Of a DNA stretch of 64,000 nt, positions 3,578-57,655 are shown piece by piece (within the stretch, counting starts at the first letter, position 1; every line of letters begins with the position of its first letter). The notes under the pieces were generated by a model. It did no database searches. It saw only the letters and a program-made list of their open reading frames with translations, and was not told where the DNA came from. The stretch is from Candidatus Woesearchaeota archaeon (lineage in GTDB: Archaea > Nanobdellota > Nanobdellia > Woesearchaeales > JAFCFN01), in assembly GCA_017608625.1 (NCBI GenBank), contig JAFCFN010000002.1, forward strand, positions 28,099 to 92,098, read 5' to 3'. Position numbers and translations under genes: made by a program.

Positions 3578-3691
3578 AAATTAGAAACCTTTTTAAACCC
3601 TAAACTTTTTCTAATTACTGTAAGGAGAAAGGAGAAGAGGAAGAATGTGCTATTTTCTCCAAATAAATAGGTTATTTAGGGTTTAAAAGTT

Positions 3692-4042
3692 ATGAAAAAA
3701 GCAGTTTTGCCAAGTTTAAGAGAAAAAAAAAGATATTTGGCCTTTGAAATTATCTCTCAATATAAATTTGACTTTATGACAGTTAAAAATGCTATACTAT
3801 CCAGCTGTCAACTATTTTTAGGGCAGCTAGGAATGGCTAAAGCAGGCATTATTGTATTAGCAGATAATTTTGATAATAAAAAACAAAAAGGTTTAATAAG
3901 GGTTAACAATAAATATATAAATGAACTAAAAGCATCCTTGGCTTTAATCAATAAAATAAATAATAAAAATATAATAATCAAAAGCCTGGGTGTTTCAGGT
4001 ATACTAAAAAAAGCTTATGACAAATATATAAAAGGAGGTTAA
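3692..4042 (+). CDS. rnp2: RNase P protein Rpp14/Pop5
   Basis: LPSLREKKRYLAFEI and GVSGILKKA motifs; upstream of psmA. Confidence 0.9.
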   Translation: MKKAVLPSLREKKRYLAFEIISQYKFDFMTVKNAILSSCQLFLGQLGMAKAGIIVLADNFDNKKQKGLIRVNNKYINELKASLALINKINNKNIIIKSLGVSGILKKAYDKYIKGG

Positions 4043-31616: not shown

Positions 31617-31754
31617 GGGCCCGTGGTCTAGTGACTCAAGCAAAAATATTTGCTTGTTGCTAGATGCTATGACAACGCCCTTACAAGGCGTAGGTCACCG
31701 GTTCGAATAAACCAAAATAAATTAATAGTGGTTATGAAACTCCGGTCGGGCCCA
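31617..31754 (+). tRNA. tRNA-Val(TAC) with introns in the D-loop (31634-31665) and at 59/60 (31708-31740)
   Basis: Removing both BHB-flanked inserts (central helices CUAG/CUAG and UUCG/UGAA) gives a standard cloverleaf; anticodon at 31682-31684. Confidence 0.92.
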
Positions 31755-31787: not shown

Positions 31788-31965
31788 GCGGTAGTAGTCC
31801 AGCAACCTTTTTTGAATGAAAGGTTGGACAATGGTAAGATAGCACCCTGCCACTAAAGTAAATCTTTGGCGATGGTGCTGACCCGGGTTCGAAAACAGTA
31901 TGTAATGAAGTAGCATACTGTATAATAACTAGTAAAAAGCTATTTCGAAAATCCCGGCTACCGCA
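31788..31965 (+). tRNA. tRNA-Gly(GCC) with three introns: 15/16 (31803-31831), 38/39 (31854-31873), 59/60 (31894-31951)
   Basis: BHB helices GUCC/GGAC, UGCC/GGCG and UUCG/CGAA; acceptor GCGGTAG/CTACCGC. Confidence 0.9.
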
Positions 31966-32043
31966 TTCCAAATTTTTAAAAATCTTAAACTTTCAAATTT
32001 CTACGAAAGTTTTAAAAAAGGATTAAATCTCTTTTTGTTTTAT

Positions 32044-32228
32044 GGGCCTGTAGCTCAGCCTGGTTAGAGCACTGGTCTTATATGTCCATTGCTTTATCAA
32101 GTTGAGATAAAATTAAAAGTCTCAACAAAGCTAAGAGAGCCAGGGGTCTGGGGTTCAAAAACAGTGTGTAGTACAGTAGCATACTGTAACAGCTAGTAAA
32201 GCTGTTTTTGAAAGTCCCTGCAGGCCCA
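32044..32228 (+). tRNA. tRNA-Ile(TAT) with introns at 37/38 (32083-32137) and 59/60 (32160-32214)
   Basis: BHB helix CUUA/UAAG fixes the anticodon TAT at 32079-32081; acceptor GGGCCTG/CAGGCCC. Confidence 0.88.
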
Positions 32229-32241
32229 TATTTAATATTAT

Positions 32242-32346
32242 GCCCCGGTGGTGTAGTCCGGCCAAGCATAATGGCTTTTCGAGCCATTGACATGGGTTCA
32301 AATTTTGTAGGTTAATGCTTACATAATGAAATTCCCGTCCGGGGCA
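32242..32346 (+). tRNA. tRNA-Glu(TTC) with intron at 59/60 (32303-32332)
   Basis: ATGGC-TTTTCGA-GCCAT anticodon arm; BHB helix UUCA/UGAA. Confidence 0.92.
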
Positions 32347-32367: not shown

Positions 32368-32481
32368 ATGAAAAGAAGTTCAAGAAGGTGGAAAAAGAAA
32401 GGACAGATGAGATGGAAGTGGCAAAGAAAAAGGATGAAGAAAGAGAAAAGAAAAAGGAAGATGAGAGCAGGAAAAATATAA
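32368..32481 (+). CDS. rpl41e: Ribosomal protein L41e-like (37 aa; not in ORF track)
   Basis: MKRSSRRWKKKGQMRWKWQRKRMKKEKRKRKMRAGKI resembles archaeal eL41; GGTGA SD upstream. Confidence 0.85.
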   Translation: MKRSSRRWKKKGQMRWKWQRKRMKKEKRKRKMRAGKI

Positions 32482-32672: not shown

Positions 32673-34135
32673 ATTCCCGTTGATTCTGCGGGAGGTTGCT
32701 GCTATCTGGTTGAGACTAAGCCATGCAAGTCTGCTTCTCTTCGGAGAGGCGGCGAACTGCTCAGTAACACGTCGGTAATCTGCCCTTAGGTCCAGGATAA
32801 CCTTGGGAAACTGAGGCTAAACCTGGATAGGAGATTGAAATTAGAAAATTCTTTCTCTGAAAAGAAATGCCTAAGGATGAGCCGGCGGCTGATTAGGCTG
32901 TTGGTGGTGTAATGGACCACCAAACCTACGATCAGTACGGGCCTTGAGAGAGGGAGCCCGGAGAAGGGTACTGAGAAACTGATCCTAGCCCTACGGGGTG
33001 CAGCAGGCGCGAAACTTCCACAATGCACGCAAGTGTGATGGAGTCAACCAGAGTGCTCATGTTCTCATGGGCTTTTGCCAAGAGTAAATATCTTGGCGAA
33101 TAAGGGGTGGGCAAGACTGGTGCCAGCCGCCGCGGTAACACCAGCGCCCCAAGTGGGAACCGCTTTTATTGGGCCTAAAGCATCCGTAGCCGGTTCAACA
33201 AATCTTCTGTGAAATTGTTGGACTTAATCTAACAACGTGCAGAAGACACTGTTGAACTTGGAACTGGGAGGAGTTAGAGGTATTTCGGGGGGAGCGGTAA
33301 AATGCTATAATCCCCGAAAGACCACCTGTGGCGAAGGCGTCTAACTAGAACAGCTTCGACGGTGAGGGATGAAAGCTAGGGGAGCAAACCGGATTAGATA
33401 CCCGAGTAGTCCTAGCCGTAAACACTGCGAGCTAGATGTTGCATCTTCTTAGGGAATATGCAGCATCGAAACGAAGGTGCTAAGCTCGCCGCCTGGGAAG
33501 TATAGTCGCAAGACCGAAACTTAAAGAAATTGGCGGGGGAGCGCCACAACGAGTGCGGCGTGCGGTTTAATCTAATTCAACGCAGATAACCTCACCAGGG
33601 GCGACGGCAGAATGAAGGTCAGTCTGAAGGGCTTACCTAACAAGCCGAGAGGTATTGCATGGCCGCCGTCAGCTAGTGTCGTGAGATGTCCTGTTAAGTC
33701 AGGTAACTAGCGAGACCTATATCTACAATTGCTACCAAGCTATGCGATTGGGCACATTGTAGAGACTGCCTGGGAAACCAGGAGGAAGGTGTAGGCGACG
33801 GTAGGTCTGTATGGTCCGAATCTCCTGGGCTACACGCGCGCAACAATGGTAGGGACAATGGGATGCAACTCCGAGAGGAGAAGCTAAACCTCTAAACCCT
33901 ATTTTAGTTCAGATTGAGGTTTGCAACTCAACCTCATGACGTCGGAATTCGTAGTAATCAGGCTTAAGCATAGCCCGGTGAATATGTCCCCGCTCCTTGC
34001 ACACACCGCCCGTCATCCCAGCCGAGCAGGGTTTAGGTGAGACTTAGTTTTTGACTAAGGCGAATCTAAACTCAGTGAGGAGGGGCAAGTCGTCACAAGG
34101 TAACCGTAGGGGAACCTGCGGTTGGATCACCTCCT
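32673..34135 (+). rRNA. rrs: 16S rRNA (archaeal, no intron seen)
   Basis: ATTCCCGTTGATTCTGCG start, GTGCCAGCCGCCGCGGTAA, TTGCACACACCGCCCGTC and 3' GGATCACCTCCT; flanks 32637-32655 and 34142-34160 form a perfect 19-bp processing stem. Confidence 0.98.
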
Positions 34136-34168: not shown

Positions 34169-34307
34169 GGGCCTGTAGTTCAGTCTGGAAGAACATCGCC
34201 CTTGCAAGGAAAGAGAGTGTTTTATCATTTCTTTCCAAAGCAAGGCGGGGGTCACGGGTTCAAAACAATTACTCGTTTGAGTAATTATGAATTTCCCGTC
34301 GGGTCCA
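34169..34307 (+). tRNA. tRNA-Ala(TGC) in the rRNA spacer, introns at 37/38 (34207-34242) and 59/60 (34265-34293)
   Basis: G3:U70 pair, anticodon TGC, BHB-like flanks. Confidence 0.92.
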
Positions 34308-34399
34308 TTTTTTAGATTAAGTTTTATGCAATTCAAAAGCTTAGCTTTTGAATGAAGGGTAAAGACTTCATGTTTATGATACCATGCATAGATTAAAAG

Positions 34400-37295
34400 A
34401 CGCTATTAGGTGGATGACTAGGCTCAAACGCTGATGAAGGGCATGGCAAGCTGTGATAAGCTCCAGGTAGTCGCATGCAGACTTGGATCTGGAGATGCCT
34501 GAATAGGACTTCCTGTCAGAGTAAAACTCTAACACTCCGTAAGGAGGGGGAACGCAGGGAATTGAAACATCTTAGTACCTGCAGGAAAAGAAATCAATTG
34601 AGATGCCGTAAGTAACAGCGAGTGAAAGCGGCACAAGGCAAACTGAATTCTCAAAAGAAATTTTGAGAAGATGTGGGGTTGTAAGGCTGCTCCTTTAAAT
34701 CCTCTTTAGGGAACTTGAATTTCCTTGGAAAAGGAAGCCATAGAGGGTGATAGCCCCGTAGAGGTAACTTAAAAGGATGTGGAGCAGTTCTTGAGTACTG
34801 CTTATTGAATATTAAGCAGGAAACTAGGAGCCATTAACTTCTAACCTTAAATACGTTTTGAGTCCGATAGCAAATCCAGTACAGTGATGGAAAGTTGAAA
34901 AGAACCCTTAACAGGAAGTGAAAAGATCCTGAAACCTAATAGCTATAGTGGGGTACAGCTCTTAGGAGTTGTACTGTCCGTTTTGAATAACGTGCCAGGG
35001 AGTGTATCTAAGTGGCGAGGATAATTAAAAAGGATCCAAAGGGAAACCAATAAGCCTGCAGCTTGCGAGAGGCAAGGTATGAAAGTGCCTGGAGTCACTT
35101 GGATACGACCCGAAACCAGGCGATCTAGCCGTGGGTAAGGTGAAGCAAGGGTAAAACCTTGTGGAGGCCTGCAGAGGTTCTACAGACAAGTGTTCTTCTA
35201 ACCTATGGCTAGGGGTGAAAAGCCAATCGAGCCTGGTGATAGCTGGTTCCTACCGAAGTTGGCCGTAGTCAAGTTTCGGAGGAGATGGCTAAAACGATAA
35301 AGCTACGGATTGGGGATTTAGGTTCCGAAAGGAATTGGTCTCCTGTCCAACTCTGAATGTTTTAGCATCATAGAATTCGAAAAACGGGGGCCCGGGGTAA
35401 GCTTGGGTCCCGAGAGGGGAACAACCCAGACTATGGTTAAGGTCCCTAAAAACTGACTAAGTGTTAAAGGGTGAAGAGTGTCCATGGCCCAAGACAGCGA
35501 GGAGGTTGGCTTAGAAGCAGCCATCCTATAATAAGTGCGTAATAGCTTACTCGTCGAGGTTGTGGGCCTCTAAAATGGACGGGGCTAAGTCAGTTACCGA
35601 TACCATAGACTATCTAAAAGATAAGTGGTAGGTAGGCGTTTTACTGGGGTAGAAGTATACTCAAAAGAGTATATTGACCCAGTAAAAATGAGAATCCTGG
35701 CGAGAGTAAGATCTTAGCAGAGTGAGAATCTCTGTCACTGAAAGGGCAAGGGTTCCTTGGCAATGCAGGTCAGCCAAGGGTAAGTTGATCCTAAATTGCA
35801 ATATAACTTATTGCTTTGAAAGGGAAAAAGGTTAACATTCCTTTACTGTCTGAGTATGTGTGGTGACACAAGTTCAGTTTCTGACCCTTCGGAATAGACA
35901 GACATCAACTGTCGTTGATGTTAACAGAGATAAATCAGAGGAGTATTATAATGATGAGAATCTGATTAAACTCTGGAATAGCAGATCTTTGGTCTGTTCT
36001 GTTGATTTCTGGAGGCCTTGAAAAGGGAACTGAAAAAAATCTCAGGCAATCATACCCAGAACCGGCACAGGTGCCCCTAGGTGAGAAGCTTAAAGTGTGA
36101 AGGACTAATCTAGTTAAGGGAATTCGGCAAATTAGCCCCGTGCCTTCGGTATAAGGGGTCCCTGCTCTTGTTTCTGTATAGAAGCGAAAGCAGGGTGCAA
36201 TGACAAGGGATGTCTGACTGTTTAACAAAAACGTAGCCTTCTGCTAAGCTGTGAAGCTGTGTATAGAAGGTGACGTCTGCCCAGTGCGCGTACTTTAAAC
36301 TCTCTTCCAAGAGAGCTAAGAGCGCGTAAACGGCGGGAGTAACTATAACTCTCTTAAGGTAGCGAAATGCCTTGCCGTTTGAATGACGGCCTGCATGAGT
36401 GGCGTAACAAGATGTCCGCTGTCCCCAACTAGAATCCTCTGAACACTCTTTCCTGGTGCAAAGGCCAGGGATTTCCAGTGGGAAGCAAAGACCCCGTGAA
36501 ACTTTACTGTAGCCTGTCATTGCAATGCGAGTTTTATTGTATAGCGTAAGTAGGAGTCGTTATGTCTTGGTCGCAAGATCAAGAATAGACGCCAATGTAA
36601 CACTACTCTTTAGAACTTGTGTTGCTAACTTAGCAATAAGGACAGTAGCAGGTGGACAGTTTGGCTGGGGTGGCACCCTGCTGAAAAGATATCAGTAGGG
36701 CCCAAAGGTTGGCTCAAGTGGGTCAGAAATCCACTGTGGAGTGCAAGGGCAAAAGCCAGCCTGATTGGATTTCTAACAAGAAGAAATCCAAAAACGAAAG
36801 TTTGGCCTAGCGAACCTCTGTGTCCTCCTTAATGGGGGTCAGAGATAACCGAAAAGTTACTCCGGGGATAACAGAGTGGTCGCGCCCGAGAGCTCAAATC
36901 GACGGCGCGGTTTGCTACATCGATGTCGGCTCTTCCTATCCTGGGCGTGCACAAGCGCCCAAGGGTGAAGGTGTTCACTTATTAAAAGGGATCGTGAGCT
37001 GGGTTCAGAACGCTGTGAGGCAGTTTGTTTGATATCTACTGGAAATGTTGGATGTCTGAAAGGAAAGAAGCCATAGTACGAGAGGAACTGGCTTCTGAGG
37101 CCTCTGGTTTACCGGATATCTGACAAGGTAAATCCGGGCAACTACGCCTTATGAGGATAAGAGCTGAAAGCATCTAAGCTCGAAGCCTCCCTTGAAAAGA
37201 GACATCCTAGAACACAGATAGAAGATCTGTTTGATGGGAGTGGTGTGTAAGCACCAAGGCAACGAGGTGTTCAGCACGCACTTTCCAACAGTTCG
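34400..37295 (+). rRNA. rrl: 23S rRNA (ends approximate)
   Basis: GAATTGAAACATCTTAGTA, GGTAGCGAAATGCCTTG and GGGATAACAG motifs; flanks 34381-34396 and 37298-37313 form a perfect 16-bp stem. Confidence 0.97.
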
Positions 37296-37428
37296 TATTA
37301 ATCTATGCATGGTTTATTTTTATTCTTCAATAAGATTATGGACATATAGCGATAGCTCTCTTTATCAAACAAACTAACTGAACCCAGCTCACTAAAAATT
37401 TTTAAACAACAATTCTTTTTATTATAAT

Positions 37429-38842: not shown

Positions 38843-38959
38843 AGCCCTGTGGTGTAGTGGTCAAGCATTGCTGGCTCTGGCCCAGTAGACCCAGGTTCGA
38901 ATCAACCGTGAAATCAGTACTGCTTTACATTCGCGGTTACGAGTCTCCTGGCAGGGCTA
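38843..38959 (+). tRNA. tRNA-Gln(CTG) with intron at 59/60 (38902-38945)
   Basis: GCTGG-CTCTGGC-CCAGT anticodon arm; BHB helix UUCG/CGAG. Confidence 0.92.
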
Positions 38960-49599: not shown

Positions 49600-50421
49600 A
49601 TGGATAAAAAAGAGGTTGGGCAAAAGATAGAAACAGAGTTAAAGTTGCAGGGAAAGAGTAAGCAGACAATAAAGATGTACTCTTTCTATAACCTAGGTTT
49701 TCTGGATTTTATTAAAAAAGACCCTGAACAGATTAGAGAGGATGACATAAAACAATATCTAGCAGATTTGCTTGAAAAGGGCAATGATATAGGAACAGTG
49801 GCTTTAGCAAGGTCTGCTTTAAGGTTTTTTTATGATGGAATGCTAAAAAAAGGTATAACTGTTGATATTAAAACGCCAAAAAAACAGAGAAAACTGCCTG
49901 ATGTGCTAACAAAAGATGAAATTAAGGCATTGATCAATGCTGCTGATAATTTAAGAGACAAATTACTTATAGAGTTTATGTATTCTGCTGGTTTAAGAGT
50001 GAGTGAATGCGCTAGTTTAAAGAGAAGTGATTTGAATATTGAGGAAAAAACTGGTTTGTTAAAGCATGGCAAAGGAGGGAAAGATAGGTTTTTCATTTTA
50101 TCAGATAGGCTTACAGAAGACTTAAAACAGTATTTGGCCAACCATAATAATGAGTATATCTTTCCTGTTGAAAACAAGCCTATATCTACAAGAAGAATAC
50201 AGGCTATTGTGCATAAATTAGCAAAAAAAGCAGGCATAAAGAAGAAAGTTTATTGCCATTTATTAAGACATAGTTTTGCAACTCATCTGCTAGAAGCAGG
50301 AGTTGATATTAGAAAGATACAAGAGTTACTTGCACATTCAAATTTGCAAACAACACAGTTTTATACTCAAGTTAGTAAGAAAGAATTAAAGAAAGTTAAG
50401 AGTCCTCTTGACAGTTTATAA
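49600..50421 (+). CDS. xerA: XerA-like tyrosine recombinase
   Basis: R-K-H-R-H-Y catalytic set: GLRVSE, GKGGKDR, HLLRHSFATH, LLAHSNLQTTQFY. Confidence 0.93.
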   Translation: MDKKEVGQKIETELKLQGKSKQTIKMYSFYNLGFLDFIKKDPEQIREDDIKQYLADLLEKGNDIGTVALARSALRFFYDGMLKKGITVDIKTPKKQRKLPDVLTKDEIKALINAADNLRDKLLIEFMYSAGLRVSECASLKRSDLNIEEKTGLLKHGKGGKDRFFILSDRLTEDLKQYLANHNNEYIFPVENKPISTRRIQAIVHKLAKKAGIKKKVYCHLLRHSFATHLLEAGVDIRKIQELLAHSNLQTTQFYTQVSKKELKKVKSPLDSL

Positions 50422-57442: not shown

Positions 57443-57655
57443 TGCGGGGAGGAGGAATTTCGTATAACCGCAAAGGGGACTTCGGTTGCTGAAGGCAACT
57501 AGAAGTCGCCTAAAGCGTTAACCGATTTTGCGGTTAATTCGAACCCCCGTAGGCACTAAGCCAACAGGTTGCCTACACATGAAGTGGCCTAAGCTTAGAC
57601 TTTTCTAAAAATTGATTAGGATAACTGTCCCGTTTGACCACTCCGGCATCCCCGC
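57443..57655 (-). tRNA. tRNA-Leu(TAG) with three introns: 30/31 (57595-57624), 37/38 (18 nt), 59/60 (57457-57537)
   Basis: BHB helices GGAC/GUCU, CUUA/UAGG and UUCG/CGAA; long variable arm; acceptor GCGGGGA/TCCCCGC. Confidence 0.9.

Follow-up and report, generated by a model that had tools for sequence, protein, structure and literature searches.

How does an intron in one archaeal tRNA gene come to resemble the intron at the same position of the gene next to it, when the two tRNAs are no more alike than unrelated tRNAs are? This question was raised by a 64-kb stretch of DNA, referred to below as the window, in which an initial annotation had proposed that an intron was recently copied between neighboring tRNA-Gly and tRNA-Ile genes. 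Both intron sequences quoted in that annotation are present exactly, at 31894-31951 and 32160-32214 of the + strand. The window is archaeal DNA of 30% G+C, and the closest relatives of its proteins were found in Woesearchaeota and Nanoarchaeota MAGs. Its eIF2-gamma was 82% identical to that of JAFCEI01 (Meg22_1012_Bin_87), and none of the other relatives listed exceeded 71%. By these protein sequences, the host of both introns is a Woesearchaeota-like DPANN archaeon. The tRNA-Gly/tRNA-Ile cluster lies directly upstream of the 16S gene of an rRNA operon (16S rRNA, 32673-34135; 23S rRNA, 34386-37308), in the order Val-Gly-Ile-Glu-L41e-16S. The L41e-like ORF between tRNA-Glu and 16S (32368-32481) has 37 codons, is rich in arginine and lysine (MKRSSRRWKKKGQMRWKWQRKRMKK...), and is kept at the same place in two of the related loci that are described below (L189 and L016). 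Elsewhere, positions 49600-50421 encode a tyrosine recombinase with Phage_integrase and SAM-like N-terminal domains, which is probably a chromosomal Xer-type enzyme; we saw no link between it and the tRNA genes.

The tRNA genes were largely invisible to standard tools. Neither ARAGORN, with its intron mode on or off, nor Rfam, at the gathering threshold and at E <= 1, detected the intron-bearing tRNAs of the window, except for a truncated Glu; the remaining output consisted of false calls within rRNA and ORFs, so that six of the seven tRNA genes were missed. We found these genes by scanning for a T-stem followed by TTCRA, a matching 3′ strand of the T-stem and a 7-bp acceptor stem. All seven genes recovered in this way had an insert in the T-loop, and a separate scan for G+C-rich intergenic segments revealed no further tRNA-like gene in the window. 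Splice sites were then set by hand from RNA folds, and the genes were spliced in silico and submitted to ARAGORN. Canonical cloverleaves were obtained for six genes (Val, Gly, Ile, Glu, Ala and Gln), and the T-loop intron was placed between positions 59 and 60 in all seven. In total, the seven genes contain at least 13 introns. The spliced tRNA-Ala keeps G3-U70. The discriminator A73 is followed by T in every gene, and CCA is encoded in none (31755, 31966, 32229, 32347, 34308 and 38960, and 57442 on the - strand).

Apart from Gly and Ile, four of these genes are on the + strand. The tRNA-Val(UAC) gene (31617-31754) contains a D-loop intron (31634-31665) and a T-loop intron (31708-31740), tRNA-Glu(UUC) (32242-32346) a T-loop intron (32303-32332), tRNA-Ala(UGC) in the 16S-23S spacer (34169-34307) an anticodon intron (34207-34242) and a T-loop intron (34265-34293), and tRNA-Gln(CUG) (38843-38959) a T-loop intron (38902-38945). 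The seventh gene is a class II, Leu-like gene on the - strand (57443-57655) with a T-loop intron of 81 nt (57457-57537). Its D- and V-arms are like those of a relative's Leu gene, and its anticodon arm was not reconstructed by single-deletion brute force or by alignment to the Leu and Ser genes of relatives; the gene probably contains two or more further introns. A 9-bp helix can form between its D-loop and downstream sequence.

The tRNA-Gly(GCC) gene (31788-31965, + strand) is 178 nt long and has three introns, removal of which left a canonical 71-nt cloverleaf that ARAGORN called as tRNA-Gly(gcc). A 29-nt intron between positions 15 and 16 of the D-loop (31803-31831), read by hand from the fold, has a good HBh′ motif, and its excision restores the D-loop AGTGGTA of the L189 and L016 orthologues. 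The anticodon-loop intron (31854-31873) is 20 nt long and was assigned to 38/39 by bulge geometry, and the T-loop intron (31894-31951) is 58 nt long. For Gly, an A-run means that cuts at 57/58, 58/59 or 59/60 would give an identical product. The tRNA-Ile(UAU) gene (32044-32228, + strand) is 185 nt long, was recognized by ARAGORN in its spliced form, and has two introns, each of 55 nt: an anticodon-loop intron at 37/38 (32083-32137), whose ends are homologous to those of introns in the related loci L189, L061 and L086, and the T-loop intron (32160-32214). We refer to the Gly and Ile T-loop introns as copies 1 and 2 of family A. The UAU anticodon of this tRNA-Ile (32044-32228), like that of the related loci L188-L267, reads the codon AUA.

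Inspection of the splice junctions revealed one arrangement in all seven T-loop introns of the window. Intron bases -6 to -3, which read YGAA or a similar sequence, were paired with exon bases T54-T55-C56-R57 at all four positions, and the last two intron bases form with U60 a 3-nt bulge, NN|U60, that abuts the T-stem. The corresponding motif of the Gly intron is at 31946-31952, where CGAA pairs with T54-G57 (31888-31891) and is followed by the bulge AA|U60; in the Ile intron it is at 32209-32215, where TGAA pairs with T54-A57 (32154-32157) and is followed by AG|U60. RNAfold gave the Gly T-loop region a structure composed of the T-stem, a 9-bp hairpin, the 3-nt bulge AAU and a helix of 7 bp in which the T-loop pairs with the 3′ end of the intron (-23.4 kcal/mol, z = -5.3), and the Ile fold was equivalent (z = -4.2). 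RNAalifold and RNAfold both recovered the T-stem as outer helix, the inner helix and the bulge, and both revealed a double change, G-C in Gly to A-U in Ile, at position 57 and intron position -6. More generally, the partner of G57 was C or wobble U, and the partner of A57 was U. We also collected 45 T-loop intron candidates across DPANN loci without applying any rule for the splice motif; 31 had the four pairs followed by NN|U60, and most of the other 14 were evident false joins or had three of the four pairs.

The strict hBHBh′ motif was not seen, as neither the minimum-energy nor the consensus folds contained a second 3-nt bulge for the 5′ splice site. Instead, A58, A59 and the first intron base are paired with UUU in these folds, so that the 5′ cut site is itself paired. 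As modeled, the motif is the relaxed hBH form rather than the strict hBHBh′ form, and a paired 5′ cut site would require an EndA of broad specificity. In the precursor, intron bases -6 to -3 would pair with T54-T55-C56-R57 to form a 4-bp central helix that would stack on the T-stem across the bulge NN|U60, the predicted site of the 3′ cut, and the 5′ cut would fall two bases beyond the helix, after A59. Judging from this anatomy and the known pathway, cleavage would be carried out by the splicing endonuclease EndA and sealing by the RtcB ligase; no EndA or RtcB gene was seen in the 64-kb window. Both family A introns are thus predicted to be archaeal endonuclease-type tRNA introns, spliced at the sites given above. 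A self-splicing group I or II identity was rejected, as neither intron had an Rfam match to a group I/II ribozyme core even at E <= 1 and 55-58 nt is too short. The idea that the intron harbors a small RNA, of the C/D-box or another type, was likewise rejected; no convincing boxes were found by eye and there was no Rfam hit.

How alike are the two family A introns? In a global alignment, 45 of 59 columns were identical (76%), with a score of 28 compared with a mean of -4.9 for shuffled sequences (sd 3.6, maximum 8). When all 13 intron sequences of the window were compared by local alignment, the Gly/Ile pair had z = 13.8 and the next of the 78 pairs had z = 3.5. The initial annotation had called for clustering of the introns of the genome and its relatives, and this comparison, made with the T-loop introns of the window together with those of about 200 DPANN loci after trimming the constrained last 6 nt, again placed the Gly/Ile pair first, as the top outlier of 528 pairs (z = 15.0); most pairs had z < 3. 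The hairpin that the annotation described as common to both introns, ACAGTRTG..CATACTGT, is real. It spans 31895-31921 in Gly (ACAGTATG..CATACTGT) and 32161-32187 in Ile (ACAGTGTG..CATACTGT), has 8-9 bp and is conserved with a change from A-U to G-U. The pattern occurred twice in the window, both times in family A, with a chance expectation of 0, and identity between the introns extends to the loop bases (GTAGCATACTGT, CTAGTAAA). A second arm, CTAG..AAGCT, had also been described as shared. Here the sequence block is shared (CTAGTAAA..GCT), but the two copies folded it in different registers and RNAalifold dropped the helix, so that the arm is borne out in part only.

Convergence, in which similarity would follow because 59/60 introns must start after A59 and end in YGAANN and AT-rich hairpins look alike, is very improbable: the 3′ YGAA and bulge do constrain all T-loop introns, but the Gly/Ile pair ranked first with that end trimmed, the identity of its loop bases and the zero expectation of the pattern are not accounted for, and the same hairpin was found in no genome, metagenome or viral collection scanned.

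The searches behind this last statement found family A nowhere beyond its two copies in the window. A strict core pattern gave 0 hits in genome contigs, and a relaxed pattern anchored on the T-loop gave 22, all of them bacterial or coding chance matches. There were 5 chance hits only in metagenome contigs and 0 hits in viral contigs, and BLAST against the window and all compared loci (about 2.4 Mb) gave no further copy. Short contigs from four public metagenomes, among vent, marine, sediment and seawater DNA runs that contained at most 11% of the words, cover parts of the arrangement independently, and we therefore rejected an assembly artefact. One contig of 165 nt (metagenome X1) spans the Ile intron with 4 differences, of which two are intronic substitutions, at positions 10 and 15 in the region of hairpin 1. 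The hairpin loop includes position 15, and position 10 corresponds to the closing G.U pair in the Gly fold and is unpaired in the Ile fold. Another contig (X3) runs from the 3′ end of the Gly intron through into Ile, and an identical contig of 151 nt (X2) runs from Val into Gly. A further X2 contig, which corresponds to window positions 32159-32241, has an Ile-like tRNA immediately before Glu; the T-loop intron of this tRNA is a different one, of 20 nt (TTCATAAATTATGATGAAAG).

We next turn to the relatives. A contig of the closest one, JAFCEI01 (JAFCEI010000047.1, our locus L189), is colinear with the window in the order ScpA, Val, Gly, Ile, Glu, L41e and 16S. This relative is not a close one, as its 16S sequence was 92% identical over 324 nt of the 5′ part. 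The tRNA genes of the two clusters differ in their introns. In Val, L189 has a T-loop intron of 25 nt, compared with 33 nt and a D-loop intron in the window. In Gly, L189 has a T-loop intron of 26 nt that is unrelated to family A, compared with the 58-nt family A copy and the D-loop and anticodon-loop introns of the window. The T-loops of Ile and Glu are intact in L189, at the positions where the window has the 55-nt family A copy and a 30-nt intron, respectively; the L189 Ile gene has an anticodon intron only, with ends homologous to those of the window's. In a BLAST comparison of the two loci, the alignment breaks exactly at the Ile intron (32159/32212), and thus the L189 Ile gene is an exact empty site. 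A more distant locus, L016, has Val, Gly, a gap of 1.5 kb, Ile, Glu and L41e, with all four T-loops intact. The predicted Val and Gly D-loops of the window agree with the intron-free orthologues in L189 and L016. In a third locus, L086, the Ile gene contains an unrelated 39-nt T-loop intron and lies beside an intact Glu gene. When relatives were aligned on Kae1, the rRNA/tRNA cluster was absent beside Kae1 in all except L086.

A second family of T-loop introns came out of the same comparison. The Val and Gly T-loop introns of L189 (JAFCEI010000047.1, about 3620-3830) are 92% identical to each other and consist of a hairpin, AACCG-N6-CGGTT, followed by ATGAAAG; we refer to this family as B. These two introns matched the T-loop intron of the window's class II gene, in its 5′ part, with z = 10.7 and 7.1 and that of the window's Gln gene with z = 7.5 and 4.8, and were related, more weakly, to the T-loop intron of the orthologous window Val gene. 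Family B therefore has five members across two genomes. Hits to it in viral contigs were at chance level only. The presence of family B in distant genes and on the opposite strand indicates that copying is not limited to neighbors or to one strand. Two other Woesearchaeota have T-loop introns, in different tRNAs (L040, about 392-670; L266, about 6536), with CTCACTKCGTTCGATTC in common (z = 9.9), a piece within the intron that resembles a T-arm fragment.

The initial annotation had named duplication of a single intron-bearing tRNA gene, with anticodon change, as the finding that would overturn copying; in such a duplication, taken to be in tandem, the intron would have been inherited by both genes, and one copy would have drifted. 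This explanation draws on the position of the two genes, which are adjacent, on the same strand and 78 nt apart. However, the mature Gly and Ile sequences are 59% identical, which is background for unrelated tRNAs here (58-76%), and their acceptor, D and anticodon arms all differ, in line with the annotated contrast between the host tRNAs. The remaining introns of the two genes are also unrelated to each other. In addition, the mature tRNA-Ile of the window is 99% identical to its syntenic L189 orthologue, and both L189 and L016 keep the order of Gly and Ile and lack family A. Since syntenic orthologues of both genes lack family A in these two loci, the tRNA genes are older than the introns. 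Duplication failed on these counts, and we set it aside as highly unlikely.

In another explanation, family A is an old intron that was long present in both genes and was kept alike by selection on a function of the intron RNA or by repeated homogenization, with the relatives having lost or replaced it. A pattern for the 5′ exon of tRNA-Ile(UAU) gave 106 matches, nearly all in DPANN MAGs, of which 80 were examined as loci (L188-L267). Introns at 59/60 were present in about a dozen of these 80 genes, the Ile(UAU) orthologues with such introns include those of L086, L061 and L246, and the hairpin stem of family A is conserved between its copies and in the strain variant represented by the X1 contig, with its substitutions at positions 10 and 15. 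These observations are consistent with an old intron. Against it, the 59/60 introns of the orthologous Ile genes are all unrelated in sequence, to family A as well, in the nearest relative the T-loop of Ile is uninterrupted and that of Gly contains a family B intron, and family A has neither a match to an Rfam family nor a copy of its hairpin in any collection scanned. We consider this explanation improbable. Most DPANN contigs that share the Ile(UAU) 5′ exon also have an anticodon-loop intron.

The relative ages of the copies can be read from the same loci. Between the window and L189, the identity of mature orthologues is 99% for Ile, 92% for Val, 89% for Glu and 76% for Gly, and that of the orthologous introns and of the Gly-Ile spacer is 51-58%. 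The paralogous pairs, Gly/Ile in the window (76%) and Val/Gly in L189 (92%), are more alike than these orthologous introns and spacers, indicating that both copy events post-date the split between the window and L189. On these comparisons, 59/60 introns appear to be gained and lost on short time scales, and the Ile intron may have been lost in L189 instead of gained in the lineage of the window. The inference that an intron was copied between the Gly and Ile genes is thus supported by 76% identity of the introns compared with 59% of the exons, by the empty site and by synteny; the word recent holds only in a relative sense, as 24% of the columns differ. The Gly(GCC) exons are 76% identical to those of the syntenic L189 gene and 85% identical to those of a Gly gene in another Woesearchaeote (L259), and the neighboring genes are 89-99% identical between the window and L189. 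From these values the three-intron Gly gene may be fast-evolving, or it may have been replaced.

How would such a copy be made? On the exon side, the splice motif is supplied by the T-arm, which is near-universal, and a 59/60 intron would therefore be expected to work in any tRNA gene; a move to a new tRNA would need at most one matching change, opposite R57. That the T-arm serves in this way probably explains why 59/60 is filled throughout. We favor a DNA-level route, which we postulate to be short-homology gene conversion or a template switch between nearby tRNA genes. The flanks GGTTCRAA and TCC, which the genes have in common, would serve as homology for such an event, and only copies in which the -6 base matched R57 would survive selection. 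The two freshest copy events both involve neighbors, which agrees with this route but is thin evidence, as the best pair is expected to be adjacent by chance in roughly 3 of 21 cases. Two further observations speak against a local DNA-level event. Family B is found in distant genes and on the other strand, and when flanking exon sequence was inspected for co-conversion, as the initial annotation had suggested, position 57 was found not to have been co-converted (G in Gly and A in Ile, with intron partners C and U, respectively). Taken together, the account in which family A consists of paralogous EndA-type introns at 59/60, predicted to be spliced through an hBH motif and copied between Gly and Ile after the split from L189, with a DNA-level route as a postulate, is one that we hold with good confidence.

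The other route would be through RNA. An excised intron, circular or linear, would be re-ligated into the T-loop of another tRNA or precursor by EndA and RtcB acting in reverse, and the product would be reverse-transcribed and recombined into the genome. This would explain why the shared stretch coincides with the intron and why exon position 57 differs with no co-conversion seen, why the empty site in the L189 Ile gene is exact and without a target duplication, and why family B copies are found in distant genes and on the opposite strand. Conversely, short co-conversion tracts would leave no trace at bases 58-59 and 60-63, which nearly all tRNAs share. No reverse transcriptase was seen in the 64-kb window, and we know of no demonstration of reverse splicing by EndA to date, which also counts against this route. 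We therefore regard it as unlikely. A related proposal, to which we give little credence, is that 59/60 introns are a family of mobile RNA elements that target the universal T-arm and have saturated the tRNAs of this lineage (seven of seven genes) by an RNA-level route; each copy would bring its own half of the motif, YGAA and the bulge, and could colonize any tRNA gene. Saturation might itself have been selected, for example if viruses and plasmids lose their usual integration sites once the T-arm is split. Our preferred reading remains DNA-level copying between tRNA genes.

Introns that have spread in this way have been described in Thermoproteales, where near-identical introns in unrelated tRNA genes were read as the result of transposition (Fujishima 2010, Mol Biol Evol 27:2233; PMC4090602, PMC4033280). 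As far as that work is described in the papers that cite it, the two cases have in common alike endonuclease-type introns at the same position in tRNAs of different identity with unrelated bodies, many introns per gene, and a gain inferred to be recent and within the lineage. Presence and absence among related orthologous genes, as in Thermoproteales, was also seen here (L189 Ile, L189 Gly, L016 and L086 Glu). The cases differ in that Thermoproteales belong to TACK, whereas the host here is a DPANN archaeon with an AT-rich genome, and in that a single site, 59/60, is occupied here in every tRNA gene seen, by at least two families of T-loop introns, with a syntenic empty site.

A precedent for the site itself comes from ARMAN-2 (Ca. 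Micrarchaeum), in which pre-tRNA-Cys(GCA) has an hBH intron at 59/60 that was cut in vitro by an epsilon2 EndA, and in which 56% of tRNA genes are disrupted (PMC3239211). ARMAN-2 and the present host have in common the 59/60 position, a relaxed hBH motif with its bulge against the T-stem, membership of DPANN and highly disrupted tRNA genes. In ARMAN-2, however, 59/60 is one of various intron positions, and no paralogous copies were reported. Several DPANN lineages have an alpha4-type EndA with an 'L3' loop, and such endonucleases accompany increased disruption of tRNA genes (Kaneta 2018, PMC5829648).

Introns at 59/60 have the cut geometry of the canonical bulge-helix-bulge introns at 37/38, in which each cut lies two bases into a 3-nt bulge that flanks a 4-bp helix, and presumably depend on the same enzymes, EndA and RtcB; introns of this canonical kind are also present in the window Ile and Ala genes. 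The difference is in the exon half of the motif, which at 37/38 is the variable anticodon loop and ties the intron to its host, whereas at 59/60 it is the conserved T-arm. Homing group I and II introns similarly spread to cognate sites in other genes. Unlike them, the introns described here are 20-110 nt long, with no ribozyme core, ORF or Rfam match. Our literature search found no report of tRNA intron copying in DPANN. The Gly/Ile pair is a clear case, outside Thermoproteales, of tRNA introns copied from gene to gene, and what it adds to known intron transposition is the saturation of one site, the presence of two families and the syntenic empty site.

The intron load of this archaeon is very high. 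With at least 13 introns in seven genes, it compares with an archaeal mean of 0.21 introns per tRNA gene and 1.54 in the record genome (PMC8450103). Incomplete tRNA sets of DPANN genomes have been taken to point to undetected disrupted genes (PMC5829648), and since six of the seven genes are overlooked here by ARAGORN and Rfam, genomes of this clade will seem tRNA-poor in automatic annotation and in estimates of completeness. On the question of how tRNA introns arise in archaea, the only described instance of spread between tRNA genes is that of Thermoproteales. The present locus is a cleaner case: its cluster of four genes is conserved and includes two copy events (Gly/Ile in the window and Val/Gly in L189), and the relative provides an exact empty site. 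It also displays a single matching base change opposite R57, and it offers a simple reason why position 59/60 would be so permissive to introns.
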